DNA of 64,000 bases from an uncultured Bacilli bacterium (GTDB lineage Bacteria; Bacillota_I; Bacilli_A; RF39; UBA660). Where the stretch lies: contig CALVQH010000001.1 of NCBI GenBank assembly GCA_944358115.1, positions 5,263 to 69,262 on the forward strand. The letters are read 5' to 3'. Each line of letters begins with the position of its first letter. Position 1 is the first letter of the stretch. The notes beneath the pieces were generated by a model. That model saw nothing but the letters and a program-made list of their open reading frames with translations. It did not search any database and was not told the origin of the DNA. Shown here piece after piece: positions 30,249-50,261 of the stretch. Position numbers and translations under genes: made by a program.

Positions 30249-30377
30249 ATTTAACCTCTTTCTATCCTCCTAATGATAACATAAAAAAGTATGAAATTCA
30301 ATTGCTTATCACCAAGTTCTATGTTATAATGAATTAAATTGATAAATATTTTTTGGCATGAAAGTAGGGATACTAGA

Positions 30378-32621: not shown

Positions 32622-32890
32622 TGGAAAAAGAAGATATTATTACACTTGAAGATAATACCGAGTATATGGTGCTAGATACAGCTCTTTTAAATCAAGAAAA
32701 ATATTTATATTGTGTGCGAATAGATGAAGAAGAAAAACCAACAAGTGAATATAAATATTTTAAAGAGATTAATGAAAATAATGAATTATTCACGGAAGAA
32801 GTAGAAGATGAAGTCGTGATTGAAACCATTACTTCTATGTTCGCCGCTGATTATTTAAATAGTGTAACAGACGAAGAACAAGACGTTTAA
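32621..32890 (+). CDS. DUF1292-like small acidic protein
   Basis: MEKEDIITLEDNTEYMVLDT...YLYCVRIDEE pattern. Confidence 0.45.
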   Translation: MEKEDIITLEDNTEYMVLDTALLNQEKYLYCVRIDEEEKPTSEYKYFKEINENNELFTEEVEDEVVIETITSMFAADYLNSVTDEEQDV

Positions 32891-32894
32891 AAGG

Positions 32895-33080
32895 AAAACT
32901 AAAAAAGAGACTTGATGGTTGGTGAAAAATCAAGAGTAGAACTTTTAAAAAATCACTTGGGAGTCGAATATTTGATAAGTAAAATATTACGTAACTTTGC
33001 GTTAAAAAGAAAAAGAGAAAAATAAAGGTGGTACCGCGCATAAAACTTGCGCCCTTTGGTGCTACCTTTTTTGTGTAAAA
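32895..33080 (+). promoter_or_regulatory. T-box riboswitch leader controlling ileS
   Basis: Conserved T-box sequence AAAGGTGGTACCGCG at 33024-33038 overlapping a terminator (gcgccctttggtgctacc plus T6). Candidate AUC specifier at 32929-32931. Confidence 0.75.
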
Positions 33081-33093
33081 AGAAGGAGGAAAT

Positions 33094-36000
33094 ATGAAAA
33101 ATTTTAAAGATTTAGACAAACGTAACGTAAATTTAGTAGAAAAGGATATAAGGGATTACTGGGATAAAATAGATATCCTAAAAAGAAGTATTGAAACGAG
33201 AGATAAAGAAAATAACTTTGTTTTCTATGATGGACCAGCAACCGCAAATGGTATGCCAGGACTTCATCATATGGTAGCAAAATTCTTAAAAGATACATTC
33301 TGCAAATATGAAACAATGAAAGGAAAAAGAGTAATAAGAAAAATTGGTTGGGATACCCATGGCTTACCCGTGGAAGTTCAAGTTGAAAAGAAACTTGGGT
33401 TTACTGGCAAAGGTGACATTGAAAAATACGGAATTAAAGAATTTAATCAAAAATGCCGCGAAACTGTTTGGGAAAATGAAGATGCTTTCTCTAGACTAAC
33501 CAAAGAAATGGGACAATTCATTGATTTAGAGCATCCCTACATCACGTATAATAATGACTATATCGAAACGGAGTGGTGGATCTTAAAGAAATTCTTTGAT
33601 GAAGGATTATTCTATGAAGGTCTAAAAATTTTACCATATTGTCCTAGATGTGGTACCGGTCTTGCCTCACATGAAGTTCAACAAGGCTATAAAGAAGTAG
33701 AGGTAGATACAGTCATCGTTCCTTTTAAAAGAGTAGATAAAGATGAATATTTCTTAGTTTGGACAACTACTCCATGGACCTTAATTGCTAATGTTGCTTT
33801 ATGTGTTCATCCCGATGAAGATTATGTACTAGTAGAATCAAAAGGTTATAAATTTATTTTAGCTGCTAAATTAGCATCAACTGTTTTAGGCGAAGAATAC
33901 ACCGTTTTAGATACATTTAAAGGTAGTACCCTAGAAAATGTTGGTTATGAGCAATTGATACCAAGCTTGTCAGTTAATAAAAAAGCATTCTATGTAACGT
34001 GTGATACGTATGTAACCATGGAAGATGGAACGGGTATTGTTCACATTGCTCCTGCTTTTGGTGCGGATGATTATGAAGTAGGAAGACGTTATAATTTGCC
34101 AATTTTAAATCCAGTTGGTGATGATGGCTGTTATACGGAAGGATTATGGAAGGGAATGTTTGTCTTTGATGCGGATAAAGAAGTCATTAAATATTTAAAA
34201 GAAAATGATAAATTATTCAAAAAAATTCACATGACTCATAACTATCCTCATTGTTGGCGTTGTAATACTCCACTCATCTATTATTCAAAACCAAGTTATT
34301 ATTTAGAGATTACTAAAATAAAGGATAAAATTGTAGAAAATAATAAAAAGGTAAATTGGTACCCAGATTATGTCGGTGAAAAAAGATTTGGCAACTGGCT
34401 AGAAAACTTAAATGACTGGGCTATTTCTAGAAGTCGTTATTGGGGAACTCCACTACCACTTTGGAGATGTGAATGTGGCCATATGGATATGATTGGTTCC
34501 CGCACAGAATTAGTTGAAAAAGCGATTGAAGAAATTGATGAATCCATTGATTTACACCGTCCATATGTTGATGATGTTCATATCAAGTGTCCAAAATGTG
34601 GTAAAGTAATGAGTCGTACGCCAGAAGTAATTGACTGTTGGTTCGATAGTGGAGCAATGCCTTTTGCTCAATATCATTATCCATTTGAAAACATGGATAT
34701 CTTTGAATCTCAATTTCCAGCTGACTTCATTTGTGAAGGAATTGATCAAACCAGAGGTTGGTTCTATTCTTTAATTGTTATTGGTACTTTTGTAAAAGGT
34801 GTAAGTCCTTATAAAAATGTATTAGTAAACGAATTATTACTAGATAAACATGGTAAAAAAATGCATAAATCAAAAGGCAATGCAATTGAACCATTTAGCT
34901 TGATGGAGCGTTTCGGTGTAGATACTATTCGTTGGTACTTACCTTATACTTCTCCTGTATGGACCCCAATCAAGTTTGATGAAGATGGCTTAAAAGAAGT
35001 ATATTCAAAATTCTTTAATCCCCTAAGAAATACTTATAATTTCTTTCAATTATATGCCAATACCGATCATATTGATATTGATGAATGTAAAGTAGCTTAT
35101 GAAGATTTAGAAGAAATTGATAAATGGTTATTATCAAAATATCATAATCTATTAAAATATGTAATCGAATCTTATGATGAATATGATTTAAATAAAGTAG
35201 TAAAGAGTATTACTAACTTTGTATCAGAGGATCTATCAAACTGGTATATTAGAAGAAATAGAAGTCGCTATTGGGGTAGTGAGCTTAATAATTCCAAAAA
35301 AGCCGTTTATAGTACAACTTATGAAGTTTTAGTGGGTGTATGTAAAATGATCGCTCCCGTAATTCCATATTTAAGCGAAGAATTATATCGTAATCTAACG
35401 GGAGAAGAATCTGTTCATCTAGCATATTTCCCTAAATACAATACAGAATATATTGATCTAAAACTAGAAGAAAAAATGGATACAGTAAGAACCCTAATTA
35501 GTATTGGCCGAAATGTTCGTGAAGAAGCGAAAATTAAGGTCAGAGAACCACTTTCAGAATGTTTATTAAACGCTGATTTAAAAGACTTAATCTCTGATTT
35601 AAAAGATTTAATCTTAGAAGAATTAAATGTCAAAGAAGTAGTCTTTGCCAGTGATTTAAATAAATACATGAGTTTCTTTGTAAAGCCAAACTTTAAAGTA
35701 GCTGGACCTGTATTTGGATCTAACATTCAAGTATTTAGTAATATTCTAGCCAATTTAACCGAAGAAGAAATTACAACTTTAAATAAAGGAGAAACCATTC
35801 ATATCACGATAGATGATACAGAATATGAAATTGATTCAAGCTATACCGATATTCGTATTAATGCCAAAGAAGGATACAATGTAGGCATGGAAAATAATTT
35901 ATTTGTTATTTTAAATACTGTACGTAGTGAAGAATTAATTTTAGAAGGAATTGCTCGTGAATTTGTATCTAAAGTTCAAAATATAAGAAAGAAAGAAGAT

Positions 36001-36186
36001 TACAATGTAGCAGATCGTATTACTATCGCTTATCATGGTGATGAGGTAGTTAAAAAATCAGTAGAAATGTTTGAAGATTATATCAAGAGTGAAACATTAA
36101 CTACGAAAATTACTTATCAAGAAGAAATAAAAGATGATCTAGATCTAAATGGTCATCAAGCTGGAATTACGACAAAGAGAGTTTAG
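33094..36186 (+). CDS. ileS: Isoleucine--tRNA ligase (long, type-2-like form)
   Basis: HIGH-region PGLHHMVAKF, WAISRSRYWGTPLP, KMHKSKGN (KMSKS), C-terminal Zn-ribbon CPKCG. 1030 aa. Confidence 0.85.
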   Translation: MKNFKDLDKRNVNLVEKDIRDYWDKIDILKRSIETRDKENNFVFYDGPATANGMPGLHHMVAKFLKDTFCKYETMKGKRVIRKIGWDTHGLPVEVQVEKKLGFTGKGDIEKYGIKEFNQKCRETVWENEDAFSRLTKEMGQFIDLEHPYITYNNDYIETEWWILKKFFDEGLFYEGLKILPYCPRCGTGLASHEVQQGYKEVEVDTVIVPFKRVDKDEYFLVWTTTPWTLIANVALCVHPDEDYVLVESKGYKFILAAKLASTVLGEEYTVLDTFKGSTLENVGYEQLIPSLSVNKKAFYVTCDTYVTMEDGTGIVHIAPAFGADDYEVGRRYNLPILNPVGDDGCYTEGLWKGMFVFDADKEVIKYLKENDKLFKKIHMTHNYPHCWRCNTPLIYYSKPSYYLEITKIKDKIVENNKKVNWYPDYVGEKRFGNWLENLNDWAISRSRYWGTPLPLWRCECGHMDMIGSRTELVEKAIEEIDESIDLHRPYVDDVHIKCPKCGKVMSRTPEVIDCWFDSGAMPFAQYHYPFENMDIFESQFPADFICEGIDQTRGWFYSLIVIGTFVKGVSPYKNVLVNELLLDKHGKKMHKSKGNAIEPFSLMERFGVDTIRWYLPYTSPVWTPIKFDEDGLKEVYSKFFNPLRNTYNFFQLYANTDHIDIDECKVAYEDLEEIDKWLLSKYHNLLKYVIESYDEYDLNKVVKSITNFVSEDLSNWYIRRNRSRYWGSELNNSKKAVYSTTYEVLVGVCKMIAPVIPYLSEELYRNLTGEESVHLAYFPKYNTEYIDLKLEEKMDTVRTLISIGRNVREEAKIKVREPLSECLLNADLKDLISDLKDLILEELNVKEVVFASDLNKYMSFFVKPNFKVAGPVFGSNIQVFSNILANLTEEEITTLNKGETIHITIDDTEYEIDSSYTDIRINAKEGYNVGMENNLFVILNTVRSEELILEGIAREFVSKVQNIRKKEDYNVADRITIAYHGDEVVKKSVEMFEDYIKSETLTTKITYQEEIKDDLDLNGHQAGITTKRV

Positions 36187-36270
36187 AAATAAACTTTCTT
36201 TTTTTGTTCTAGCACTTCTCAAGTACTATTTTTCATATGAATAAATGTAGCATTTAGAAAGGAAATTTAT

Positions 36271-37425
36271 ATGAATTTAAATGATTTAAAAGTAAGCGGT
36301 ACCAACCAAATAGAATTAAACGATTCTCTAAAAACATCACTATTAAGTCTAAAAATATCATTAAATGAAAGTACCCAAATCCCTAGTAATAACGAATTAA
36401 CTATTTATGTCGATACAAGTTCTACTCCAACCGAAAATAGAAAAACTTATACATTTCAATTAGATAATGCTTTATCTATAGGAGACGAATTTATTATGGA
36501 ACCAGTTATTACAGATAAAAATATTGAACTAAAAGCATATGTGAAAAGGAGTACAAATGATATCGAAGAAATAGAATATCAAAATATTTTATTATTTGCA
36601 GGAACAAACTATATCTATACCAATTATGAAAATGCTACTATAGATATAATGTATCCTAAAAATAATGATTTAGTAAAATATTATTTAAATAACATTTTAT
36701 ATAGTTTAAATAATAAAAATAAAATACTTAGTTTAGATGATATTTATTTCAAAGATGCTTTTACTGAGGTAGATGATAAGTTGAATGCAGCTTTAAATAA
36801 TTTAAGCATTGATTGCCTTACATCCAATAATAACAAATTTAGTTTAGATAGTGATGGTAATTTAACAGTTAATAGCCTAACAACTACTGTTTCATCATCA
36901 GCAGATTTAGATTTTAATGAAATTTATCCAATTGGCTCTGTTTATTTAAGTGTTAATTCAACAAATCCAAGTGTTTACTTTGGAGGAACTTGGGAACAAA
37001 TTAACGGTTATTATCTATATGCTGGAAATACTAATAATACTGGTGGTAGTAGTTTAACAGGAGAAGCATCTGGAAATACAGGATCTACAACATTAACTGC
37101 AAATCAAATTCCAAGCCATAGCCATTCAATTCCTTCACTAAATGGTACGGCCTCTTCGAATGGATCCCACACTCACAATATCGGCGCTGATTTTGATGGA
37201 GGGGCCGGAAGTGCACGTTACACTGTTCATTCAAGAGGAACAAGTGGAGCAGGATATTTAATGGCAACGTCTTCTTCTGGAGCACATACTCATAGTGTAA
37301 GCACAAATGCAAGCAATACAGGTTCATCTGGAGGTACATCAAGTCATACACACTCATTAAATAATCATACTCACACAATTAATCCACCATTTTATAGTTT
37401 ATTTGTATTTAAAAGAACCGCTTAA
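36271..37425 (+). CDS. Phage tail-fibre-like protein with HxH metal-binding fibre tip
   Basis: IYPIGSVYLSVNS...GGTWEQI plus five HxH repeats (SHSHSI, SHTHNI, AHTHSV, SHTHSL, NHTHTI) like the T4 gp37/gp12 needle. Gly/Ser/Thr-rich. Confidence 0.6.
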   Translation: MNLNDLKVSGTNQIELNDSLKTSLLSLKISLNESTQIPSNNELTIYVDTSSTPTENRKTYTFQLDNALSIGDEFIMEPVITDKNIELKAYVKRSTNDIEEIEYQNILLFAGTNYIYTNYENATIDIMYPKNNDLVKYYLNNILYSLNNKNKILSLDDIYFKDAFTEVDDKLNAALNNLSIDCLTSNNNKFSLDSDGNLTVNSLTTTVSSSADLDFNEIYPIGSVYLSVNSTNPSVYFGGTWEQINGYYLYAGNTNNTGGSSLTGEASGNTGSTTLTANQIPSHSHSIPSLNGTASSNGSHTHNIGADFDGGAGSARYTVHSRGTSGAGYLMATSSSGAHTHSVSTNASNTGSSGGTSSHTHSLNNHTHTINPPFYSLFVFKRTA

Positions 37426-37509
37426 AAAAACATCTTTTGATGTTTTTTTAGTTATTTGCCAATGCCATATTCTAAAAAGTACATAAACTAACTATGGGAA
37501 GGAGGCATT

Positions 37510-37875
37510 ATGAAAAATATTAAAGGCTACGTAAATATGAAAACTGATTTAAACCTTATTCTTTTAAGAATACAATTTTTAGAAGAAAAAGAAAAGCAAA
37601 TAAATAAAGAAAAAGTATCTCTTGAAGAATTAAAACAAAAATTAACAAATATTTTAAATCAAACGGAAGAAAAATTGAAAGAGTTAAAAGGGATAGACAG
37701 AGAATTGTTTTATGAAATAATGGTAAAAGGAACCAATGTAACAAGAGCAGTAGATAAAGTATCAATTACATATGATGTTGATCCATCAACGATTTGGAAG
37801 TATTACTATCCTAAAATAAAAGAAGACATCAAAAAATTAGAAAAAGAAATAATGTCTAGCGAGATTCTAGTATAA
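37510..37875 (+). CDS. Small coiled-coil hypothetical protein
   Basis: ORF only; lies between the fibre-like gene and the RHS gene. Confidence 0.3.
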   Translation: MKNIKGYVNMKTDLNLILLRIQFLEEKEKQINKEKVSLEELKQKLTNILNQTEEKLKELKGIDRELFYEIMVKGTNVTRAVDKVSITYDVDPSTIWKYYYPKIKEDIKKLEKEIMSSEILV

Positions 37876-37905
37876 ACTTTCATATTTATATATCGGGGTG
37901 AGAAT

Positions 37906-40900
37906 ATGAAAGAATTAAAACATCTTCGTAAACAAAATGAAAAACAATTCTTAAATGATGATGGGTCTATTTCCCTATATCTCTATAACAATGATATTCA
38001 TTATTTAAAAAATGGTGAATATCTAGAAATTGATAATACACTCGTTGAGGAAGAAAATAACATCATTAATAAAGAAAATAATTTTCATACACGTTTTACG
38101 AAAGATACAAAAACAAATTTATTAGTAGATATTACCAAAGATAATTATTATCTAAAAATTTATTTAATGAAATCAAAAAATAATGCAATGAATATGAAGA
38201 AAAATAAAAACAATATAAAACTAGAAAATATCTTAGAAGATATAGATATTGATTATCATGTAATATCGACACAATTAAAGGAAGCTATTATTTTAAAAAA
38301 TAAAAATAATATTCCTACCTCTTTATCTTTTAAAGTAGATACTAACCTAGATTTAGAAGTGGAAGAAAAGGGAAGTGTTCTAGCAAAAGATAAAGAAAAA
38401 CCAATTTTTGTAATTGCAGCACCTTTTATGAAAGATAATAAAGGAACATACAATTACAAGATAAAATACGATTTAAGTTTAAAAGATGATACGTATATCT
38501 TAAACTTAAATTTAGATCAAGAATGGTTAAATGAAGCAGAGTTCCCTGTAGTAATTGATCCAACAATTGTAAATCCGGACGAAGAAGATCCAGAAAATGT
38601 ATATGATGCATATATAAGCTCGAGTCTTCCTGATATGAATATGAATACTCACGAGGAACTATACGTTGGTTCGAATTCAACTAGAACAACAAGAACATTA
38701 TTAAAGTTTAAACTTCCAACAATTGGTACAGGATATGATATTGTAAATGCCACAGCGTATCTAAATAGCGAATTTATGTCTTTAAATGGTAAAACAATTA
38801 ACGTTCATGAGATAACTAACGATTGGAATGAAGCAACAGTTACTTGGAATAGTATCTATGATAAGTATAATTCAAAAATCGAAGAGTATTTTTATGAACA
38901 AAGAACGGTACAAAGTGAGAAAATATTCCCGTTCAATATTACCAATTTAGTCAAAAAATGGTATGCGGGTAATCCTAATTATGGCCTCATGTTAAAGTTA
39001 AATGATGAAACGCCAAATGATGACAATGATAGTTACATCTTTTATTCTAAAACTTATGATGGTTTAAATGAAACAGGATTAAGGCCTTATTTAGCCATTA
39101 CTTATCGTAATCAGAATGGCCTAGAGGATTATATGACTTATCAAACACAAGAATACACAGATGGTGCAAGCTATATCAATAATTTAACTGGTAATCTAAC
39201 CACTACATTCAATTTAAATGAAACAATAGGGGGTAAATATCCAATTGGTTTAAGTCTAGTTTATAATACGAATGATATGGTTTTAAATAATAACTATGGT
39301 TATCAATCTGGATACAAATTAAATTTACATGAAACAATAAAAGAAGTAACAATAGACCTAAATAATTACTTAGAATATATAGATGCTGATGGTACAATCC
39401 ATTACTTTCGAAATGAATTAGATGAAGAAGGAGAAAAAATTGATAATAAGTACATAGATGAAGATGGATTAGGCCTAAACGCTACAAAAGAAACAAATAA
39501 AGTAATAATAGAAGATATAAATAGTAATAAATATGAATTTTCTTTAAATAATAATATTTATTATTTAACCAAATTAACAAATACAAATAATGATAGTGTA
39601 ACAATAACATATGATACAAATAACCGAATCAATAAAGTAACAGATGCCAATAATTCTAGCATCAATATTACATATAATACAAATAATATGATTATTACCA
39701 GTGATAGCACAACAACAACAGTCAATTATACAAATAATAAAGTAACTAGTATAATAAGTAAAAATGGTACCACCAATTTTACTTATAATAATTATGGCTT
39801 AATTAGTAAAATTACCGATGTAAATGGATTAAGTAAAGCTTTTAATTATTATGATGTAAGTCCATATAAAATAAAAAAAGTAATAGAATATGGCTTAAAT
39901 GATGAAGAAGGAGCTTCTCTAGAATTTGAATACGGCTTTTTAGTTACAAGAGTAAAAGATAATAAGGATCGATATAATACCTATATTTTTAACGAACAAG
40001 GAAATACAATTGGTTTTACGAATTTAGATGAAGAAGCAAATTTAAATAATGCTTATGGAAAAGGTGTAGTTTATGAAAATACCACAATTTATAAAGAAAA
40101 TAATGGTACCTATTTTGAAGATATAAATCGAGCAGGAAATAAATTGAAAAATGAAATATTAGCAGTTAAATACACGAAAAATTTAATTAAAAATAGTAGT
40201 TTTGAAGATGCAGAAACATTCTTTATTGGAACTAGAACAACGGAAGAAAAAAGAACTGGAAGTTATAGTTTAAAATTTTCTGATTATTGCTATTTTGAAG
40301 ATCCATCTCTTCCGCCGCGAGGAAAAAATTATACTTTTAGTGGATACTTTAAAAATGATAAAACCTTAACCATGAGCTTAGAAAGAAGAGGATTAAATAA
40401 AACGGATACTTTAGATATAATATCTATTCCTCCAAATGAAGATTTTACAAAATATAGCGTGACGGGTGATTATCCTTCTTCTGAAGAAGAAGGCGGATAT
40501 ATTTCAGTAACGATAACTTCAAATGAAAAAGGAACAGCCTATTTAGATGATGTACAACTTGAAGAAGGAGAAATTGCTAATTATTATAATATGTTAGAAA
40601 ATGGTGATTTCCATGATGGATTAACTGGATGGAATGCAAGTGCCTATGATCGTGAAGGAAATAGTATTAATAATGTAGCAAGTGTAGTAACATTAGAAAA
40701 TGGCGTAAAAGCTTTAAAAATAGCTTCTAATCCTGATTTAGATATTGCTGTTTCCACTACTTTAAAAGTAAATGGAATTGGTGATTTATCGGAAGATAGA
40801 ATAGGAGACTTATATAATTTATCATTCTGGTATAAAAACGAAGGATTACCAAAGGGCGGAACAGGAATGGAATATAGTAATTCTGTATTATTAAGCTTTT

Positions 40901-43900
40901 ATTATACCAACGTACCTGAAGGTGAAGGGTACGGAATTGATCCTATTGGTTTAACTTCTCATAGTAATGAATGGCAATATTTCTCAGCTCCATTCCCAAC
41001 AGATAGTTTATATAATTATGATACCATCGCTTTAACCATATTATCAAATTATAATGCCAATAACTTATATATTACCAATATTTCTTTATCAAAAGATATA
41101 GAACAAAATTATAATTATCATAATAGTGAAACTGGTAATTTAGAGGGAATTAGAAACATGGATAGTTCTCATGCTAGTTTCACTTATGATGAAAATAATC
41201 AATTAACAAGTATGTTTAATCCATTAGGTAATAACTTTAAATTTGAATACGATAATGTGGTAACAGATCGTATATTAAAAGGAATATCACCATCAGGAAT
41301 ATCGAATGAAATTTTATATGATGAATTTGGTAATCCTAAAAAAACAATCATCAATAATGTCAATCCAGATCAAGATATTATGGATGGTAAAACTTATTAT
41401 ATTCGTTTAAAAGGTTCACAAGAATATTGGGATAGTAATTTTATAACAAATGAGATTTTATTAAAAGAAGATAATTGTAGTCATGATACTTACACTCTTT
41501 TAAAAGAGGGTGAATACTTCCGAATAAAAAGTGGGAATGAGTATGTAACACTCATAAATGATTCAATTGGTTTAACCAAGTTAATGACTGATGATTCTTT
41601 GTTCAGATTTTTCCTCCAAAACAACAATAGTTACATCATCATTCCCAAAACCAAAGATAATACATTACTAGAACACAATCTAGCAAATGTAAATGGTAAA
41701 ATTTCTTTAAAAACAAGTGATACCAAAGAATATGAAGAGCAATTTTATTTTGAAGATATTGATACGCAATTGTTTATTGAATCAAAAGCGGAATATACTG
41801 AAGATGGAAAGTTTGTTACCCAAACAATCGATTCTTTAGGCAAAGTTACATCTTATGATATTAATACCACCAATGGTTTAACTAATAGTATTACTGATGC
41901 AAACAACATAACAACTTACTATACTTATAATACTAAAGATCAAATAACCAAAGTAAAGAAAGAAAACAAAGAAGTAAACTATGATTATAATAGCAATAAT
42001 TTACTATCAAAAATAACTTCAAATAACAAAGAATATAACTTTACTTATGATAATTTCTTAAATTCCAAACAAATAAAAATAGGAGACAATATTACTCTTA
42101 TTACTAATAATTATGAAAATAATAATGGGAATCTTCTATCAAGTGTTTATGGTAATGGTGATACATTTAGTTACACTTATGATGAACTTGATAGAATTAA
42201 AACAATGACAAATGATGCTAGTACCTATACATATCATTATGATAATTTGGGCAATTTAGCTAAAATAACAAGTATAAGTGAAAATTATAATTATTATTAT
42301 GACTTATCTAATAGGATTAGCAAATACCTAGTCAATAACTTTAATATTGAGTATGACTATGATTCGAATAATAATATACTTAAGAAAGAGTATACATTAA
42401 ATGATAAAGAAACAGTTACTTTTGAATATAACACCGATGATGCAATAACCAAAGTAACATTCGATAATAATAATTTAAATTATGCTTATGATTATCTAGG
42501 AAGATTAACTAGTAAAGATATAAATGGCAATCAAAAGATAGAGTATACATACATAACAAATGGTAATAAAACTTCTACTGTATTAAAATCCATGAAAATA
42601 AATAATGATTTATATGAATATTATTATGATCATCTATATAATATCACAGATATTTATTTAAATAATAAATTAATTAATCATTATGAGTATGATAATTTTA
42701 ATGAACTAATTAAAGAAGATAGCTATAGTTTAAACAAAACAATAAGATATACTTATGATAATGCTGGAAACATATTAAAGAAACAAGAATACGAATTAGA
42801 TACTTATAATTTATTACATACAGATACTTATGAATATAATAATGTTAATTGGGAAGGCCAATTGACAAAATATAACAATGAATCAATTACTTATGATGCT
42901 ATAGGTAATCCATTAACCATAGGAAATAAAACACTAACTTGGGTAAATGGTAGACAACTAGCAAGTTATACCGATGAAAGTCTAAATATTTCTTATACTT
43001 ATAATAAAGATGGAATAAGAACAGAGAAAGTAATAAATAATACAAAAACTAATTACTTTACAGAAAATAATAAGATAATATTTGAACAAACAGGAAATAA
43101 TATGGTATACTATATACGAGATGAGGAAGGAAGTTTAATAGGATTTAAATATAATAATACACTTTATTATTATATAAAAAACATGCAAGAAGATATCATA
43201 GGAATAACGGATAGTAATTATAACTTAGTATGCAGTTATGAATATGATTCATGGGGAAAACTAATATCCATTAAAGATAATAATGGAAACATTATTACTA
43301 ATACATCTCATATAGGTTATATCAATCCATTTAGATATAGGTCATACTATTATGATAATGAAACAAAGTTGTATTATCTAAATAGTAGATACTATAATCC
43401 AGAATGGGGTAGATTTATTAATGCAGATAGATTTATAAGCACAGATACAGGTATAATTGGCTTCAATATGTATGCTTATTGTAATAATGAGCCAATATCA
43501 AGAAAAGATTATAGTGGAAGTTTCTTCGGACTAGTTTTTGGAATGTTTGCAGTTACAGCTGGAATTATTCTTGGTGCAGAGATTATTGATAATAATAATA
43601 AAAAACAAAATAAAAAAGCTAAAAAAGAAATAGAAGAAGTGCAAAAAAAACACAATGTTTGTCCAATAGAAGAAAATAAAAATTTTAAAGAAACTTTAAA
43701 AACTAATGCAAAAAAAGTTCAAAATGATACTCAAAATATGAATTATATAGAAAGACTAAACTATTTAAGAGAAAATGCAAATGATGGTCAAAAATTCGAT
43801 TTAAAACTATTTACAAAAGATACAATATTTTATGACGGTATGTATATGGAACCACAAGATATCGGTAACTATCACTTTGGGTACATAGGTAGAGCTGCAG

Positions 43901-44070
43901 GCATTCAAACTTGGGTTTTATTAAAGGGTGCCTCAGTAAATCAAATAAAGAAAATGAATTGGGAAGTATTTAAAAATTGTTTTACTACATCTTTCTGCGA
44001 CGATCCTAGAGATCAATATTTTATAAAAATGGGAGCGATAGCATATGATAAAGAACATAAAAATAAATAG
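37906..44070 (+). CDS. RHS/YD-repeat polymorphic toxin (2054 aa) with DNRLRE-like N-terminal domain and variable C-terminal toxin domain
   Basis: Dozens of YD repeats (YTYD.NGN., YDxxGRL). Canonical RHS core end RYYNPEWGRFINADRF followed by NMYAYCNNEPI. N-terminal DAYISSSLPDMNMNTHEELYVGSNS...LLKFKL matches the DNRLRE domain. No signal peptide. A TM helix (FFGLVFGMFAVTAGIILG) follows the core. Confidence 0.85.
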   Translation: MKELKHLRKQNEKQFLNDDGSISLYLYNNDIHYLKNGEYLEIDNTLVEEENNIINKENNFHTRFTKDTKTNLLVDITKDNYYLKIYLMKSKNNAMNMKKNKNNIKLENILEDIDIDYHVISTQLKEAIILKNKNNIPTSLSFKVDTNLDLEVEEKGSVLAKDKEKPIFVIAAPFMKDNKGTYNYKIKYDLSLKDDTYILNLNLDQEWLNEAEFPVVIDPTIVNPDEEDPENVYDAYISSSLPDMNMNTHEELYVGSNSTRTTRTLLKFKLPTIGTGYDIVNATAYLNSEFMSLNGKTINVHEITNDWNEATVTWNSIYDKYNSKIEEYFYEQRTVQSEKIFPFNITNLVKKWYAGNPNYGLMLKLNDETPNDDNDSYIFYSKTYDGLNETGLRPYLAITYRNQNGLEDYMTYQTQEYTDGASYINNLTGNLTTTFNLNETIGGKYPIGLSLVYNTNDMVLNNNYGYQSGYKLNLHETIKEVTIDLNNYLEYIDADGTIHYFRNELDEEGEKIDNKYIDEDGLGLNATKETNKVIIEDINSNKYEFSLNNNIYYLTKLTNTNNDSVTITYDTNNRINKVTDANNSSINITYNTNNMIITSDSTTTTVNYTNNKVTSIISKNGTTNFTYNNYGLISKITDVNGLSKAFNYYDVSPYKIKKVIEYGLNDEEGASLEFEYGFLVTRVKDNKDRYNTYIFNEQGNTIGFTNLDEEANLNNAYGKGVVYENTTIYKENNGTYFEDINRAGNKLKNEILAVKYTKNLIKNSSFEDAETFFIGTRTTEEKRTGSYSLKFSDYCYFEDPSLPPRGKNYTFSGYFKNDKTLTMSLERRGLNKTDTLDIISIPPNEDFTKYSVTGDYPSSEEEGGYISVTITSNEKGTAYLDDVQLEEGEIANYYNMLENGDFHDGLTGWNASAYDREGNSINNVASVVTLENGVKALKIASNPDLDIAVSTTLKVNGIGDLSEDRIGDLYNLSFWYKNEGLPKGGTGMEYSNSVLLSFYYTNVPEGEGYGIDPIGLTSHSNEWQYFSAPFPTDSLYNYDTIALTILSNYNANNLYITNISLSKDIEQNYNYHNSETGNLEGIRNMDSSHASFTYDENNQLTSMFNPLGNNFKFEYDNVVTDRILKGISPSGISNEILYDEFGNPKKTIINNVNPDQDIMDGKTYYIRLKGSQEYWDSNFITNEILLKEDNCSHDTYTLLKEGEYFRIKSGNEYVTLINDSIGLTKLMTDDSLFRFFLQNNNSYIIIPKTKDNTLLEHNLANVNGKISLKTSDTKEYEEQFYFEDIDTQLFIESKAEYTEDGKFVTQTIDSLGKVTSYDINTTNGLTNSITDANNITTYYTYNTKDQITKVKKENKEVNYDYNSNNLLSKITSNNKEYNFTYDNFLNSKQIKIGDNITLITNNYENNNGNLLSSVYGNGDTFSYTYDELDRIKTMTNDASTYTYHYDNLGNLAKITSISENYNYYYDLSNRISKYLVNNFNIEYDYDSNNNILKKEYTLNDKETVTFEYNTDDAITKVTFDNNNLNYAYDYLGRLTSKDINGNQKIEYTYITNGNKTSTVLKSMKINNDLYEYYYDHLYNITDIYLNNKLINHYEYDNFNELIKEDSYSLNKTIRYTYDNAGNILKKQEYELDTYNLLHTDTYEYNNVNWEGQLTKYNNESITYDAIGNPLTIGNKTLTWVNGRQLASYTDESLNISYTYNKDGIRTEKVINNTKTNYFTENNKIIFEQTGNNMVYYIRDEEGSLIGFKYNNTLYYYIKNMQEDIIGITDSNYNLVCSYEYDSWGKLISIKDNNGNIITNTSHIGYINPFRYRSYYYDNETKLYYLNSRYYNPEWGRFINADRFISTDTGIIGFNMYAYCNNEPISRKDYSGSFFGLVFGMFAVTAGIILGAEIIDNNNKKQNKKAKKEIEEVQKKHNVCPIEENKNFKETLKTNAKKVQNDTQNMNYIERLNYLRENANDGQKFDLKLFTKDTIFYDGMYMEPQDIGNYHFGYIGRAAGIQTWVLLKGASVNQIKKMNWEVFKNCFTTSFCDDPRDQYFIKMGAIAYDKEHKNK

Positions 44071-44620
44071 AAAGAAAATTGTTATTGCTGGTATTCTAAT
44101 TGTATTAATAGCGTTATTAATAATTCCAATAATAGTTATTATGATACTTTTTGTTGATGGCCTTAAAGAGAATGCTATTGATAAAAAGGCTATGGAATAT
44201 GAAAGTGAAGAAAAGCGCTTAGAATACTTTTTAGAAAATGAAGAATACCTTAATAAATTAGCAAACTATTTTATAGAATATCCAGAACTTGATAGAATAG
44301 GAAAAAACATTTGGTGTTCTAATGCCGATGAACCAACATATGAATTGAATGATATAACAATTTGTACTTATAAAAAATTAGAAAATCTACCAATTAAAGA
44401 TATTGTAGAAATATATAAAAAAACAAACCTTTCAATTGTTGGTAGAAGGAATGACTGTATTGCATTTTATTTATACATAACAACATATCATGATGTTTGC
44501 TATAATTATTATTTCACTTCTTCAAAAAGTGAATATATAAAATATGATTATGGGATAATTGAAGAAAATGAAATAAATGAGAATTGGAGTAGTATGTTTT
44601 CAAATATTCCTTATGATTAA
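44045..44620 (+). CDS. Putative cognate immunity protein (N-terminal TM, 191 aa)
   Basis: Overlaps the last 26 nt of the RHS gene, the typical toxin-immunity arrangement. TM helix IVIAGILIVLIALLIIPIIVIMILF. Confidence 0.5.
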   Translation: MIKNIKINRKKIVIAGILIVLIALLIIPIIVIMILFVDGLKENAIDKKAMEYESEEKRLEYFLENEEYLNKLANYFIEYPELDRIGKNIWCSNADEPTYELNDITICTYKKLENLPIKDIVEIYKKTNLSIVGRRNDCIAFYLYITTYHDVCYNYYFTSSKSEYIKYDYGIIEENEINENWSSMFSNIPYD

Positions 44621-44838
44621 AAACAAGCAATATTAGAACTAATGTAATCAGTTTACACTAGTTCTTTTTATATATTTGAATAAACAGATAATAATATGGC
44701 ATAAGAATAAAATGCGTTAGCGTATGATGAAAATTCGCAAACATGCCTTTTGATTAAAGAATAAAAAAATTCAATATCATAGTACAATCGCCAACTCGTG
44801 TGTTCTCTTTTTTTCATACAATAAATAGGAGGAAGAAT

Positions 44839-45234
44839 ATGGAACATATATATAATGTAATCTCTTATTTATTGGGTGGAATTGATGCACCGATCATTGT
44901 CTTATTAATTACCATGGTCTATGTCTATCTAACGGGTTGGTGCAAAGTAATATTTTGCCATAAAATGAATAAATTAGTAGGCTTAAAAGGTATCATTCGT
45001 GATCTTGGCTATTTAATGATTGTGTCTTTATCGGTATTATTAGATCGTTTAATGGGAAGTGCGGAAGCGATAAGAACAATCGTTATTTATTTCTTTGTTG
45101 CCCATGAAGGTTTATTAATTTTAAAATGTTGGTGTAAAATGGGACTTCCTCTACCACAAAAAATATATAACACGCTAGAAAATTTATTAGGAGAGGAGGA
45201 ATCTGATGGCAACTCTACTGAACGTGAAGAATAA
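44839..45234 (+). CDS. Holin (phage_holin_4_1 / TcdE-like family)
   Basis: Three TM segments. The conserved YL.G.D.P...LL..M..DY.TG and GL.LP pattern of the family. RBS TAGGAGGAAG before ATG 44839. Confidence 0.65.
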   Translation: MEHIYNVISYLLGGIDAPIIVLLITMVYVYLTGWCKVIFCHKMNKLVGLKGIIRDLGYLMIVSLSVLLDRLMGSAEAIRTIVIYFFVAHEGLLILKCWCKMGLPLPQKIYNTLENLLGEEESDGNSTEREE

Positions 45235-45958
45235 TGTCTTAAAGAGGGGAAAGCATTACTTAACAAGTGACTATAAAACAAGAAATGAATCGAGAAGCAC
45301 CCATAATGGCATGGATTTGGTAGGACAAAATGGAGTAGATGATATTGTAGCCATAGAATCGGGAACCGTAACTTATACTGGTTATGATGCAAGTGGCGGT
45401 GGATACTGGATATCGATTACGACAAATGGGATAGAGCATCGTTATTTTCATTTAAAAAAAGGATCACTAAAAGTAAAGAAAGGCGATCGTGTAACCAAAG
45501 GTGATGTCATAGCAACCATGGGTGATTCTGGAAATGCTACGGGAAATAATCTTCATTTTGCTATTTATAAAAATGGTTATATTGACCCAAAACCATATTT
45601 AATGAATGATAATCCTTTTAATGTAGAAAGTAATGATGCTTACACCACATTTATTCGTGATTTACAAAAGGCAATCGGTACCAATGTAGACGGGATTGCT
45701 GGACCGGAAACACTATCAAAAACCCCAACCATATCAACAAGTACCGGCTGGAATCATGCCGCTGTTAGACCTTTACAAATTTATTTACAAAACTTAGGAT
45801 ATGATTTAGGAAGTAAAGGTGTAGATGGTCAGTTTGGAAAAGATATGAAGGCCTGTATTAAAAAGTACCAAAAAGATGTAGGTTTAGCATCAAAATACCA
45901 AGATGGTATTGTAACTGCTAAAATGTATACTTGGCAAAAATTATTAAAATTAAATTAA
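45206..45958 (+). CDS. M23 peptidase (LytM-type endopeptidase) with two peptidoglycan-binding repeats; endolysin-like
   Basis: HNGMDL...D...HLHFAI M23 signature. C-terminal PG_binding_1-like repeats (VDGIAGPETL, VDGQFGKDM). Overlaps the holin gene. Confidence 0.75.
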   Translation: MATLLNVKNNVLKRGKHYLTSDYKTRNESRSTHNGMDLVGQNGVDDIVAIESGTVTYTGYDASGGGYWISITTNGIEHRYFHLKKGSLKVKKGDRVTKGDVIATMGDSGNATGNNLHFAIYKNGYIDPKPYLMNDNPFNVESNDAYTTFIRDLQKAIGTNVDGIAGPETLSKTPTISTSTGWNHAAVRPLQIYLQNLGYDLGSKGVDGQFGKDMKACIKKYQKDVGLASKYQDGIVTAKMYTWQKLLKLN

Positions 45959-45986
45959 GAGCTTTATTTGTTAAGCTCTTTTTTTA
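45957..45986 (+). terminator. Rho-independent terminator
   Basis: aagagctt-tatttgtt-aagctctt hairpin plus T6. Confidence 0.65.
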
Positions 45987-46046
45987 AATTGTTGTTTAGA
46001 AAGAATTGTATTTTTTCTTATATTTTCGTATAATTAAATTAGGTAG

Positions 46047-46475
46047 GTGAAGTGTATGTGGATTACTTGGTTAATTATTGTTATATTATTAACCATTTTA
46101 GAAGCGATAACGATTAATTTAGTAAGTGTATGGTTTATTGTAAGTGGCATTGTAAGCTTATTCTTATCCTTTGTAATTGATTCATTTTATATTCAATTTA
46201 GCATCTTTGTATGTTTAGGCTTAGTTTTAATGCTTTTAACAAGGCCATATCTAGTAAAGAAACTAGCAAAGAAAAAAGTAAGTACCAATTTAGATCGGGT
46301 AATTGGTATGGAAGGAATAGTAACCGAAGAAATTACCAAATTTAAAATTGGTGAAGTAAAAGTAGATGGCAAAAAATGGAGTGCTATGGCAAATGAAAAA
46401 ATAAAAGTAGGTGAGGAAGTCATCATTGATAAGATCGATGGTGTCAAACTCATTGTAAGAAAGGAAGAAAAGTAA
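46047..46475 (+). CDS. NfeD-family membrane protein (short form)
   Basis: Two or three N-terminal TM helices plus a C-terminal OB-fold (KIGEVKVDGKKWSA...VIIDKIDGVKLIV). Paired with the SPFH gene. Confidence 0.7.
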   Translation: MKCMWITWLIIVILLTILEAITINLVSVWFIVSGIVSLFLSFVIDSFYIQFSIFVCLGLVLMLLTRPYLVKKLAKKKVSTNLDRVIGMEGIVTEEITKFKIGEVKVDGKKWSAMANEKIKVGEEVIIDKIDGVKLIVRKEEK

Positions 46476-47362
46476 TGGAAATTTTAATTGCAATTTTAAT
46501 TTTAGTAGTTATTTTAATTATTCCCAATATTAAAATAGTTCCTCAAGCAAAAGCATATGTAATCGAAAGATTGGGAAGTTATTATACCACATGGCAAAAC
46601 GGGTTACATGTAAAAATACCATTTGTTGATCGCGTCTCAAAAGTGGTTAGTCTAAAAGAAACGGTAAAGGATTTTGCTCCTCAACCGGTAATTACGAAAG
46701 ATAATGTAACCATGCAAATTGATACAGTAGTATACTATCAAATTACGGATCCTAAACTCTATACCTATGGAGTGGATGCCCCAGTAAGTGCGATTGAAAA
46801 TCTAACAGCTACAACCCTTAGAAATATTATTGGTGAATTAGAATTAGATCAAACACTAACGAGTAGAGATATTATTAATGGTAAAATGCGGGCAATCTTA
46901 GATGAAGCTACCGATCCTTGGGGAATCAAAGTAAATCGGGTTGAAGTAAAAAATATTTTACCTCCAAGAGATATTCAAGAAGCAATGGAAAAACAAATGC
47001 GTGCTGAAAGAGAAAGAAGAGAAAAAATATTACAAGCTGAAGGAGAAAAGAAATCAAGTATTTTAATCGCTGAGGGAGAAAAAGAAAGTGCCATTTTACG
47101 AGCAGAAGCCGAAGCACAAAGTGCTATTAAAGTTGCTGAAGGACAAGCAGAAGCTTTAATTAAAATAAAAGAAGCCGAAGCAAAGGGAATAGAACTCTTA
47201 AAAAATGCTAAAGCTGATGTAACCGTATTAACTCTAAAAAGTTATGAAGCCTTAAGTAAAGTAGCAGACGGTCAATCAACCAAACTCATTATACCCGCTA
47301 ATTTACAAGATATTGCAACCTTTGGCACAACCCTAATGGAGGTTATGAAAGATAAGAAATAG
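46475..47362 (+). CDS. SPFH/band-7 (stomatin/flotillin-like, FloA-type) protein
   Basis: N-terminal TM, SPFH domain, C-terminal Ala/Glu-rich coiled-coil (EAEAQSAIKVAEGQAEA). Confidence 0.8.
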   Translation: MEILIAILILVVILIIPNIKIVPQAKAYVIERLGSYYTTWQNGLHVKIPFVDRVSKVVSLKETVKDFAPQPVITKDNVTMQIDTVVYYQITDPKLYTYGVDAPVSAIENLTATTLRNIIGELELDQTLTSRDIINGKMRAILDEATDPWGIKVNRVEVKNILPPRDIQEAMEKQMRAERERREKILQAEGEKKSSILIAEGEKESAILRAEAEAQSAIKVAEGQAEALIKIKEAEAKGIELLKNAKADVTVLTLKSYEALSKVADGQSTKLIIPANLQDIATFGTTLMEVMKDKK

Positions 47363-47378
47363 TCTTATCTTTTTCAAC

Positions 47379-47852
47379 ATGATACAAGAACATACCATTC
47401 CTCCTTTTTATAATCCAGATTCAAAGGTGCTAATATTAGGATCTTTCCCCAGCGTAAAATCAAGAGAAGAAGGCTTTTATTATGCTCATCCCCAAAATCG
47501 CTTTTGGAAGGTGTTAGCAAATATTTTTAACGAAGAGATAACAGATAAGAAAGCTTTTTTAAAAAAACATCAGATTGCCTTATTTGATGTATGTGCCTCT
47601 TGTGAAATCAAAGGATCGAGTGATGCTTCTATTAAAAAAGTAATTCCCAATGATATTAAAAAATTAATAGAAGAAAGTGAAATAAAAGTGATTTTACTAA
47701 ATGGAAAAACTGCCACAAATCTTTTTAAAAAGATGATAAAAGACATTAAAATACCTACAATTAGTTTACCTAGTACCAGTCCTGCCAACGCAACTTACAG
47801 TTTAGATAAATTAATAAAGGAATATGAAATCATAAAAAAGTTTACAAAATAA
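47379..47852 (+). CDS. DNA-deoxyinosine (hypoxanthine) glycosylase-like, UDG superfamily
   Basis: VLILGSFPSVKS...YYAHPQNRFW matches the small UDG-fold family. Confidence 0.55.
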   Translation: MIQEHTIPPFYNPDSKVLILGSFPSVKSREEGFYYAHPQNRFWKVLANIFNEEITDKKAFLKKHQIALFDVCASCEIKGSSDASIKKVIPNDIKKLIEESEIKVILLNGKTATNLFKKMIKDIKIPTISLPSTSPANATYSLDKLIKEYEIIKKFTK

Positions 47853-49523: not shown

Positions 49524-50261
49524 ATGAGAACCAAAGAATTAGAAAATTTGAAACAAGAGTTTTTAAGAATTAAAAATATGGGGTATGTTAAAAGTACTAG
49601 ATCCGGTGTTACCGGAGTAGGCAAAACATTTGAAGATTTGCTGGGAAAAGAAGAAGATACAAAAGGAACTCCAGACTACCATGGCATTGAATTGAAAACA
49701 AAATTAGGATATAGTCAGTCTTATACAACACTCTTTAATTCTACGCCAGAGGGAGAATTGGAAACACAAAGACTATGTAAAGAATATGGCTATCCAGATA
49801 AAATTCTAAGGGATAAAAAAGTGTTAAATGTTTCAATTACTACAACACCAATTTTAGTAGCAAATCGATATTTTTTTAATTTAAAGGTAGATTACAATAT
49901 GAAAAAATTAATTTTAATAATTAAAAATAAATATGGTAAGATTTTAGAAAATAAAGTATACTGGAGTTTTGGAACATTAAAGGAAAAATTAAATACAAAA
50001 TTACAATATGTTGCATTAATTAATGCGTGGCCAACAACACGCAATAACGTAACATATTATAAATATTATAAAATTAATTTTTATAAATTAAAAACTTTTG
50101 AAAAATTTATAGAACTAATTGATAAAGGAATAATTCGTATAAGCTTAAAAATAGGAGTATACAGAACTGGAACCAAAAAAGGATTATACCATGATCGTGG
50201 AACAAGTTTTGAATTAAAAACTTTTGATTTTTATCAATTATTTGAACATATTTATATATGA
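49524..50261 (+). CDS. MvaI/BcnI-family (MutH-like) restriction endonuclease-like protein, apparently orphan
   Basis: N-terminal GVTGVGKTFEDLLGKEED...PDYHGIELKTK and C-terminal GLYHDRG resemble BcnI as recalled from memory. No adjacent methyltransferase. Confidence 0.45.
   Translation: MRTKELENLKQEFLRIKNMGYVKSTRSGVTGVGKTFEDLLGKEEDTKGTPDYHGIELKTKLGYSQSYTTLFNSTPEGELETQRLCKEYGYPDKILRDKKVLNVSITTTPILVANRYFFNLKVDYNMKKLILIIKNKYGKILENKVYWSFGTLKEKLNTKLQYVALINAWPTTRNNVTYYKYYKINFYKLKTFEKFIELIDKGIIRISLKIGVYRTGTKKGLYHDRGTSFELKTFDFYQLFEHIYI

Follow-up and report, generated by a model that had tools for sequence, protein, structure and literature searches.

A fibre-linked RHS toxin island with an adjoining holin and M23 peptidase in an uncultured gut Bacilli bacterium: a candidate lysis-cassette toxin-release module

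The 64,000-nucleotide stretch of DNA analysed here (hereafter the window; AT-rich, with a G+C content of about 29%) belongs to the metagenome-assembled genome (MAG) of an uncultured Bacilli bacterium (1.3 Mb and 93.5% complete; G000 in our numbering of genomes, G, and loci, L) and contains a 9.8 kb island that is flanked by ileS on its left and by an NfeD/SPFH gene on its right. The island carries six open reading frames (ORFs), which encode a fibre-like protein, a small coiled-coil protein (cc), an RHS/YD polymorphic toxin, a candidate immunity protein, a holin and an M23 metallopeptidase. An earlier note on this DNA had read the same gene order, closed by a terminator, and all six ORFs are confirmed at the window positions listed below. 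Logan contigs of independent chicken-gut assemblies span the C-terminal end of the RHS gene (RHS-CT), the immunity gene and the holin gene, and thus the adjacency of these genes is no assembly artefact.

36271 to 37425, + strand: fibre-like protein, 384 amino acids; Pfam Gp10_C (PF21939) at 1.3e-12, PHROG tail fibre at 2.5e-20
37510 to 37875, + strand: cc, coiled-coil protein of 121 amino acids with a conserved C-terminal helix-turn-helix-like segment, STIWKxYYPK
37906 to 44070, + strand: RHS/YD polymorphic toxin, 2054 amino acids, about 235 kDa; RHS_repeat (PF05593) at 1.1e-27, TIGR01643
44045 to 44620, + strand: immunity candidate, 191 amino acids, overlapping the RHS stop by 26 nt, with one N-terminal transmembrane anchor
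44839 to 45234, + strand: holin of the TcdE family; Phage_holin_4_1 (PF05105) at 2.6e-25, TIGR01593 'toxin secretion/phage lysis holin'
45206 to 45958, + strand: M23 metallopeptidase, Peptidase_M23 with two PG_binding_1 repeats, overlapping the holin gene by 29 nt

The RHS protein has the features of an RHS/YD polymorphic toxin, viz., YD repeats, an Rhs core that precedes a variable toxin end, and a downstream immunity candidate. A conserved N-domain (residues 1-220) is followed by a DNRLRE part (233-399), the YD shell, the Rhs_assc_core (1780-1871; TIGR03696) and a C-terminal Ntox44 domain (1957-2049). Its relatives align with it only until about residue 1890, beyond which they carry other C-terminal toxins, i.e., swapped ends. 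The autoproteolysis site reads ...NNEPISRKDYSGS, in which the Asp is kept and the rest is unlike the canonical NNPxxxxDPxGL. The N-terminal 420 residues were modelled at a pLDDT of 82, and the DNRLRE part of the model matches CBM96 carbohydrate-binding modules (8wab and 7vbo) with TM values of 0.66-0.77, in agreement with the mention of DNRLRE in the paper that defines CBM96 (PMC9971899). No clear fold match was obtained for the N-domain (1-220), and a carbohydrate-binding role considered for residues ~760-1060 was dropped after Pfam gave no confirmation. A single strongly hydrophobic segment (residues ~1870-1890; window 43513-43580) opens the toxin region immediately behind the Rhs core and could help the released toxin end to enter a target membrane.

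The N-terminus of the RHS protein is hydrophilic, with a maximum KD(12) of 0.41 in its first 60 residues, and strongly conserved across 18 relatives. A hydrophobic N-terminal segment or signal peptide was found in none of the fibre, cc, RHS and M23 proteins, which agrees with the lack of a signal peptide previously claimed for the RHS protein. The downstream 191-residue ORF is a candidate for the cognate immunity gene from its position and its co-variation with the toxin end: a genus member with the same RHS C-terminal toxin (G030) encodes a 100% identical immunity candidate, and another (G021) has an orphan copy of it behind a different toxin end and a further ORF. Orphan RHS ends with small ORFs are present in G003, G036, G020 and G009, where they form long arrays together with immunity-like genes (DUF2691, RDD and multi-transmembrane proteins).

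The fibre-like protein matches two PHROG families (phrog_2097 and phrog_6465) and is composed of a module-specific N-domain (residues 1-135), a neck and a Gp10_C/HxH tip, with repeated HxH/HxS motifs in its C-terminal third. The presence of the Gp10_C tip (PF21939) is as expected of a phage receptor-binding protein. The N-domain was modelled at a pLDDT of ~90, and its top five structural matches are the Dit galectin-like domains of Gram-positive siphophage baseplates and of monocin, with borderline but consistent Z-scores of 7.1-8.3; a Foldseek search with the fibre model gave no significant match. The 80 best matches to the fibre in IMG/VR cover only residues ~140/218-384, and the N-domain is absent from all of them. 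None of these 80 viral contigs carries an RHS gene, and about half of them have a holin_4_1 gene nearby. As the tip is common to phages and such a holin often lies close to it, the tip and the lysis cassette derive from the end of a phage late operon (fibre, holin, lysin); the fibre N-domain and the RHS gene, on the other hand, are specific to the chromosomal module. In a class-wide genome sample, the N-terminal part of the fibre was found only in the window's own genome, which indicates that the module is rare and patchy, and our counts of modules come mainly from metagenome contigs. Some modules have two fibre paralogues in tandem before the cc and RHS genes (L071, 1168-3203; L077, 8844-11098), and in G064 the fibre gene is broken into three ORFs.

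The cc gene is kept between the fibre and RHS genes in the genus of the window's organism and in L063, L067, L071-L073 and L077; in two RHS-less genus members (G029 and G001) it is retained beside lysis genes. A language model gave weak leads to Sigma70_r4/DUF1492/DUF722 (0.90), and a PDB profile search returned coiled-coil noise and a weak sigma match (E 0.1). Membership in the sigma-like or activator families of related modules was rejected by hhalign. The cc protein is a candidate regulator or a candidate fibre adaptor.

The holin has three hydrophobic segments and an acidic C-terminal tail, and likely starts at the ATG at 44839, behind AGGAGG, rather than at the GTG at 44800. It is the only PF05105 gene in the host genome. 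The M23 peptidase retains the HxxxD motif (H33...D37), the His of FHL and the second His of HxH, but its HxH motif reads N-L-H. The first His of this motif is replaced by N, C, A, S or Y in all 12 orthologues from the genus, which keep the other motifs throughout, whereas L057, L059 and L061 encode M23 proteins with the canonical HLH. In LytM and lysostaphin, the first His of HxH contributes to catalysis. The genus M23 may therefore be attenuated, and one may speculate that it opens the wall locally rather than bringing about full lysis. The N-L-H form is under strong constraint across the genus, perhaps as an attenuated or repurposed LytM domain. The earlier note had correctly described an M23 enzyme with peptidoglycan-binding repeats and had missed this substitution. 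It had also named decay of the holin and M23 genes as a possibility that would count against its proposal. Both genes are intact, with dN/dS of 0.08-0.23 for M23 and 0.17-0.39 for the holin, RHS-less genomes included, values that are rough as dS is near saturation. All module genes are intact and under purifying selection by the same measure.

Four elements that may govern transcription of the island were located, as follows.

36209 to 36246, + strand: promoter-like element upstream of the fibre gene, CTAGCAC-N-TTTTCATATGAATAAAT, alignable with the element upstream of the holin gene
44635 to 44665, + strand: terminator-like hairpin and T-run between the immunity and holin genes, followed on the + strand by TTTTTATATATTT; reported by the scan on the - strand
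44780 to 44826, + strand: promoter-like element upstream of the holin gene, TAGTACAATCGCCAAC-N-TTTTCATACAATAAAT
45957 to 45980, + strand: intrinsic-terminator-like hairpin and T-run at the end of the island

The hairpin behind the immunity gene, which went unnoticed in the earlier and otherwise confirmed account of the island's gene content, makes two transcription units likely. The element upstream of the holin is conserved in G021, G036, G028 and G061, and the holin of G003 carries an element of the fibre type that is nearly identical to the window's element at 36209-36246. A core of 16-17 nt is present in three copies in the 1.3 Mb genome, where its composition would predict ~0.1; as the pattern was built from two of these copies, only the third counts as independent. 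This third copy, TTTTCATATAATAAAT, lies outside the window, just upstream of a signal-less ORF of 139 amino acids (G000:C7:34300-34719, - strand), which we take from its sequence to be a SleB/CwlJ-like wall hydrolase and which adjoins an amidase+LysM gene. The copies of the core may mark a small wall-lysis regulon. From the common promoter-like element we infer that the fibre unit and the holin unit are co-regulated. Phage-type sigma or activator genes often accompany related modules; no sigma gene was found in the island, and tblastn with the sigma-like and activator genes that these modules carry gave no match in the genome.

A survey of the genus, in which ileS could be located in 42 of 44 genomes and the DNA downstream of it fetched for 33, shows that the slot between ileS and NfeD (window 36187-46046; loci L013-L047) is hypervariable and occurs in three main states. 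The full module, from the fibre, cc, RHS and immunity genes to holin-M23, is present in G000, G030, G021, G003 and G036; in G003 orphan RHS ends and small ORFs take up about 21 kb in its interior, and in G036 it is distributed over two contigs. The holin-M23 pair is present without fibre or RHS genes in G028, G035, G017, G061, G031 and G002, while eight slots have neither the module nor holin-M23 (G014, G026, G033, G024, G006, G008, G062 and G066). Partial slots hold cc with holin-M23 (G029), cc with M23 (G001), or a holin with immunity-like leftovers (G009), and the module loci of G065, G064, G019, G063 and G012 are cut by contig ends. Other genes found in the slot are ogt, an ArsC-like gene, a GH3 NagZ-like gene, a Ser/Thr kinase, DUF2130, an HD-domain gene and DUF4153. 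All five complete RHS loci of the genus have holin-M23 downstream. The conservation of holin-M23 without fibre or RHS genes implies that a function independent of the toxin is present or possible. The identity of the RHS protein to that of the window does not track that of ileS (73% vs 69% in G021; 59% vs 81% in G003), which points to exchange of the module or to its fast divergence.

Beyond the genus, full-length homologues of the fibre (40-45% identity) are always encoded directly upstream of an RHS gene of 2000-2100 amino acids, in non-phage contexts. The fibre gene is, on this evidence of gene order, the most tightly linked partner of the window's RHS family, a partnership that the earlier note overlooked. 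The loci with lysis genes are diverse in their make-up. L057/58 have fibre, RHS, three small ORFs, M23/LysM, holin_4_1 and a phage-type activator, and L059/60 have fibre, RHS, one ORF, two M23/LysM genes, holin_4_1 and a regulator, while L061/62 begin with a Sigma70_r4-like gene, followed by fibre, RHS, one ORF, a phrog_4105 protein, a small phrog_443 holin and M23. The carrier of the L059-type locus is a spore-forming organism, perhaps amenable to culture. A metagenome scan with the fibre alignment provided L066-L072 and L077: in L066-L069, sigma-like, fibre, optional cc and RHS genes precede one or more small holins, an M23 gene with LysM, PG_binding or SH3-like parts and a second sigma-like gene; L070 consists of activator, fibre, RHS, M23/LysM and holin_4_1; and L071/72/77 combine a sigma-like gene, two fibres, cc and RHS with two PG_binding_1 parts, Peptidase_M15_3 and holin_4_1. 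At a locus of G072 (L227), holin-M23 lies directly downstream of a second fibre-RHS module whose RHS protein is 44% identical to the window's. This locus overturned a view we had considered, according to which holin-M23 is unrelated to RHS, since L052-L056 had no lysis genes and the holin-M23 pair of G072 lies 165 kb from L056.

A short-fibre variant of 177-224 amino acids, which does not have the N-domain, is likewise paired with RHS. Two of its loci have lysis genes upstream of the fibre, namely Holin_LLH and GH25/CW_7/LysM in L093 and holin_4_1 in L100; none were seen in the DNA available at L083, L105, L112, L128, G202 and G398. Overall, a holin and/or peptidoglycan hydrolase gene is adjacent in 13 of about 20 fibre-RHS contexts, divided into 11 of 12 with a long fibre (the window's genus, L057/58, L059/60, L061/62, L066, L067, L068/69, L070, L071/77 and L227) and two of eight with a short one. 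In the long-fibre contexts the lysis genes come after the fibre-RHS pair or, at some loci, before it. Chance adjacency would be expected at ~1-2% per locus, taking one such holin per 1.3 Mb as the base rate, and no lysis genes were found near three fibre-less RHS relatives that served as a small control (L056, L018 and L019; n=3). The flanks of the lysis-positive loci are mostly unrelated. The order is holin before M23 in the window and L227, and M23 before holin in L057, L059 and L070. The hydrolases are M23+PG_binding_1, M23+LysM, M23/SH3-like, PG_binding_1+Peptidase_M15_3 or a GH25 muramidase, and the holins are of the 4_1 type, the small phrog_443 type (with the phrog_4105 protein; L061-L068) or Holin_LLH. 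That the lysis genes vary in order and family and yet stay adjacent argues for selection on function and not for mere inheritance. Recurrent linkage of RHS to a holin and a peptidoglycan hydrolase outside phages, for which a comparison of neighbourhoods had been suggested, is thus observed in relatives that carry the fibre, both in the genus (G021, G030, G003 and G036) and outside it (L057, L059, L061, L066-L070, L071/L077 and L227).

The locus was also examined for a phage particle or another export route. The genome gave no match to HK97 capsid, TerL, portal or sheath, though MAGs can lose prophage contigs and the absence of phage genes is accordingly not proven; phage structural genes and an integrase were not found in the window, and tail genes were found in none of the ~20 loci examined. 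The search for att-like repeats at the flanks returned only AT-rich chance repeats, and a prophage remnant with att sites was rejected for this reason. WXG100 genes are likewise unmatched in the genome. The proposals that the locus is neither a prophage nor a tailocin and that the RHS protein, which has no signal peptide, does not use a type VII secretion system (T7SS) route both withstand these searches.

Based on this gene content and linkage, we propose, with a probability of roughly 0.6, that the island is an antibacterial toxin module of phage origin that has been domesticated, and that its signal-less RHS toxin and fibre are released via a dedicated holin and peptidoglycan hydrolase. The unit from fibre to immunity gene and the holin-M23 unit would be switched on together from their related promoter-like elements, with cc as the sole regulator candidate at this locus. 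From what is known of RHS families, the RHS shell would enclose the Ntox44 toxin at the C-terminus, and the producer would be protected by the membrane-anchored immunity protein. As the recurrent gene linkage suggests, the TcdE-family holin would open the membrane, allowing the signal-less M23 peptidase to reach the wall and to open or lyse it. The wall would open in a fraction of the cells or non-lytically, and the ~235-kDa RHS protein and the fibre would leave by this route. Outside, the fibre tip and the carbohydrate-binding modules of RHS may bind surface glycans of a competitor, to which the toxin is then delivered.

A more specific version of this proposal, which we regard as possible but doubtful, holds that the fibre and RHS proteins form a tail-less, phage-fibre-guided toxin particle, in which the Dit-like N-domain of a trimeric fibre docks on the N-domain of RHS; late regulators of phage type would control the production of such a particle, which would exit by its own holin and hydrolase. 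If true, it would represent a previously unrecognised class of high-molecular-weight bacteriocin, patchily distributed in uncultured gut Bacillota, and would give Gram-positive RHS toxins their first dedicated release route.

Several observations weigh against the proposed release function. Holin-M23 is intact at the same site in at least six RHS-less members of the genus, and the immunity and holin genes are parted by a terminator-like hairpin (44635-44665). Lysis genes are missing from the available DNA of one long-fibre lineage (L052-L054) and of six of the eight short-fibre loci. Phage tail-fibre genes normally adjoin holin-lysin genes, and the linkage could in part have been inherited from a phage ancestor; the loci, moreover, do not count as phylogenetically independent should the module travel in one piece. 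The genus M23 without the first His of HxH may, in addition, be a weak enzyme.

Most of these observations would also fit a neighbourhood that was inherited without any coupling, in which an RHS-immunity pair was inserted at what had been the end of a phage late operon, holin-M23 now serves the host in autolysis, in wall remodelling or for another cargo, and RHS exits some other way, e.g., by general autolysis or an unrecognised exporter. The purifying selection on holin-M23 in the RHS-less members (at least six), the hairpin and the fibre-RHS loci with no lysis genes in range all favour it, as do the GH3 NagZ-like gene that adjoins holin-M23 in eight genomes and the proximity of holin_4_1 to related fibre tips in about half of the IMG/VR contigs, which suggests that fibre-holin adjacency is ancestral. 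Inertia predicts otherwise, however, than lysis genes that are replaced by unrelated families or moved to the other side and still remain adjacent, and it does not account for the loss of all other phage genes in every locus. The absence of signal peptides from both cargo and hydrolase, the failure to detect another export system in the genome and the common promoter-like element that precedes both units argue in the same direction, and we consider uncoupled inheritance unlikely, while granting it a real share of the probability.

Much less probable is that the fibre and RHS proteins are accessories of a phage or tailocin particle encoded elsewhere, which the lysis genes would serve. The homology of the fibre tip to phage fibres, the likeness of its N-domain to the Dit galectin domains of siphophage baseplates and monocin, and the phage-type sigma or late-activator genes of related modules are in line with such a particle; but capsid, TerL, portal and sheath are unmatched in a genome that is 93.5% complete (with the caveat on lost prophage contigs given above), tail genes are lacking from all of the ~20 loci, and not one of the 80 viral contigs has an RHS gene. 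Finally, a decaying prophage remnant beside an unrelated toxin island in a recombination hot spot, with no present function, would suit the hypervariability of the slot (empty, holin-only or full, with orphan toxin-end and immunity arrays), but is hardly credible given intact genes with dN/dS well below 1, the same module in many unrelated contexts, and the lack of att-like repeats and of an integrase in our searches.

The proposed module is hosted, judging by genome content, by small-genome, uncultured, walled, RF39-like gut Bacilli. The genome has six transpeptidase (penicillin-binding protein) and five Mur-ligase matches, from which we conclude that the organism is walled; its relatives bear the titles Mycoplasma sp. 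CAG:776, Candidatus Caccenecus avistercoris and uncultured Bacilli, and near-identical DNA is present in chicken-gut metagenomes of nine studies. The flanks of the island are as follows.

32865 to 33059, + strand: T-box leader (RF00230, 96 bits), preceding ileS
33094 to 36186, + strand: ileS, housekeeping flank upstream of the island
46047 to 47852: NfeD/SPFH/UDG, housekeeping flank downstream of the island

The fibre gene starts 84 nt past the end of ileS, and no terminator-like site was found between the two; read-through from the T-box-controlled ileS is thus possible. Three RHS loci without a sigma gene lie 60-115 nt behind an aminoacyl-tRNA synthetase gene (ileS in the window, tyrS and proS in the others), the synthetase coordinates being 33094-36186 in the window, 7259-8473 in L052 and 8242-9687 in L056. 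Starvation control through T-box and synthetase read-through was considered and dropped, as no T-box above threshold was found in the related tyrS and proS loci (L052 and L056). Upstream of the T-box, an ORF of 760 amino acids (30339-32621) is unmatched in Pfam, PHROG and NCBIfam and shows only 37-43% identity in genus relatives, and a restriction endonuclease gene of the MvaI/BcnI family (49524-50261; 4e-40) lies ~3.5 kb downstream of the island.

The Gram-positive RHS toxins known so far are exported via Sec or T7SS, and the proposed module bears on the way in which very large toxins that lack a signal peptide exit Gram-positive cells. To our knowledge, release by way of a holin is established only for the glucosylating toxins of clostridia and, among Gram-negative bacteria, for a few enzymes and the Tc toxins. 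A recurrent compact unit of regulator, fibre, RHS, immunity, holin and hydrolase genes would extend lysis-cassette secretion to interbacterial polymorphic toxins, and suggests the co-option of phage receptor-binding proteins for the targeting of RHS toxins. Such a module may shape strain competition among abundant uncultured RF39-like gut Bacilli in poultry and other animals, and its swappable fibre tips and toxin ends would suit narrow-spectrum antibacterial proteins. Full-text literature searches found no published description of a module that combines Rhs, tail fibre, holin and M23 or a lysis cassette, and a large survey of polymorphic toxins does not mention holins (PMC3482391).

Among known systems, the Tc toxins of Yersinia entomophaga are RHS-cocoon toxins released by a type 10 secretion system (T10SS), i.e., a phage lysis cassette (PMC10847048, PMC10847046). 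They share with the module a signal-less giant RHS/YD-cocoon toxin and a holin and endolysin encoded nearby, and their release proceeds by lysis of a subpopulation. Tc systems differ in being Gram-negative, with a spanin, a TcA translocation pentamer and insect-cell targets, whereas the module is Gram-positive and without TcA or spanin, and has instead a phage-fibre partner, an immunity gene and swappable toxin ends, its release route being predicted from its genes. The immunity gene and swappable ends fit an interbacterial polymorphic toxin. The features of a T10SS that can be read from sequence, viz., a holin outside any recognisable prophage, a peptidoglycan hydrolase without predicted signal and a linked signal-less cargo, are present. 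The T10SS-like logic of the earlier note is upheld, but that note had overlooked the Gram-negative RHS-type Tc toxins that already use a lysis cassette (PMC10847048).

A second parallel is the pathogenicity locus (PaLoc) of C. difficile and the TcdE/TcdL-dependent release of clostridial toxins (PMC6200909, PMC11344133, PMC8878733; holins are reviewed in PMC9527704). As had been suggested from the likeness to TcdE, the window's holin is of the same family (PF05105/TIGR01593), and both loci combine such a holin, a phage-derived wall hydrolase and a signal-less giant toxin at one chromosomal, non-prophage site; small sigma-like regulators, a further parallel to the PaLoc with its sigma factor TcdR, are present in related modules. 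The cargo of the module differs, being an RHS polymorphic toxin with immunity and not a glucosylating toxin, and in place of an endolysin remnant such as TcdL the module has a hydrolase of full length, an M23 (or M15/GH25) enzyme whose repeats bind the wall. A TcdR-family sigma was not found in the window, and the fibre partner has no counterpart in the PaLoc.

The RHS toxins of the WapA type (Bacillus subtilis, Streptococcus suis) have a Sec signal peptide and wall anchors (PMC12704120). WapA and the RHS substrates of T7SS resemble the window's family in their YD shell, Rhs core, variable toxin end, downstream immunity gene, DNRLRE and orphan-end arrays in relatives; they differ in that WapA depends on Sec and wall anchors and T7SS substrates on LXG/WXG, while the window's family has neither and is linked to a fibre and a lysis cassette. 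Lysis-released bacteriocins, such as colicins, monocin and diffocin (PMC11830787), share the logic of toxin, immunity and lysis, a phage-derived receptor-binding part and phage-derived lysis genes, and probably the sacrifice of some producers. Compared with colicins, the RHS toxin is far larger, and compared with tailocins, the module has no tail tube, sheath or baseplate and its killer would be an enzyme-type toxin in an RHS shell rather than a membrane-puncturing tail. Taken with these comparisons, the genes of the island point to a Gram-positive variant of lysis-cassette toxin release that is similar to T10SS and the PaLoc and has a phage-fibre partner.

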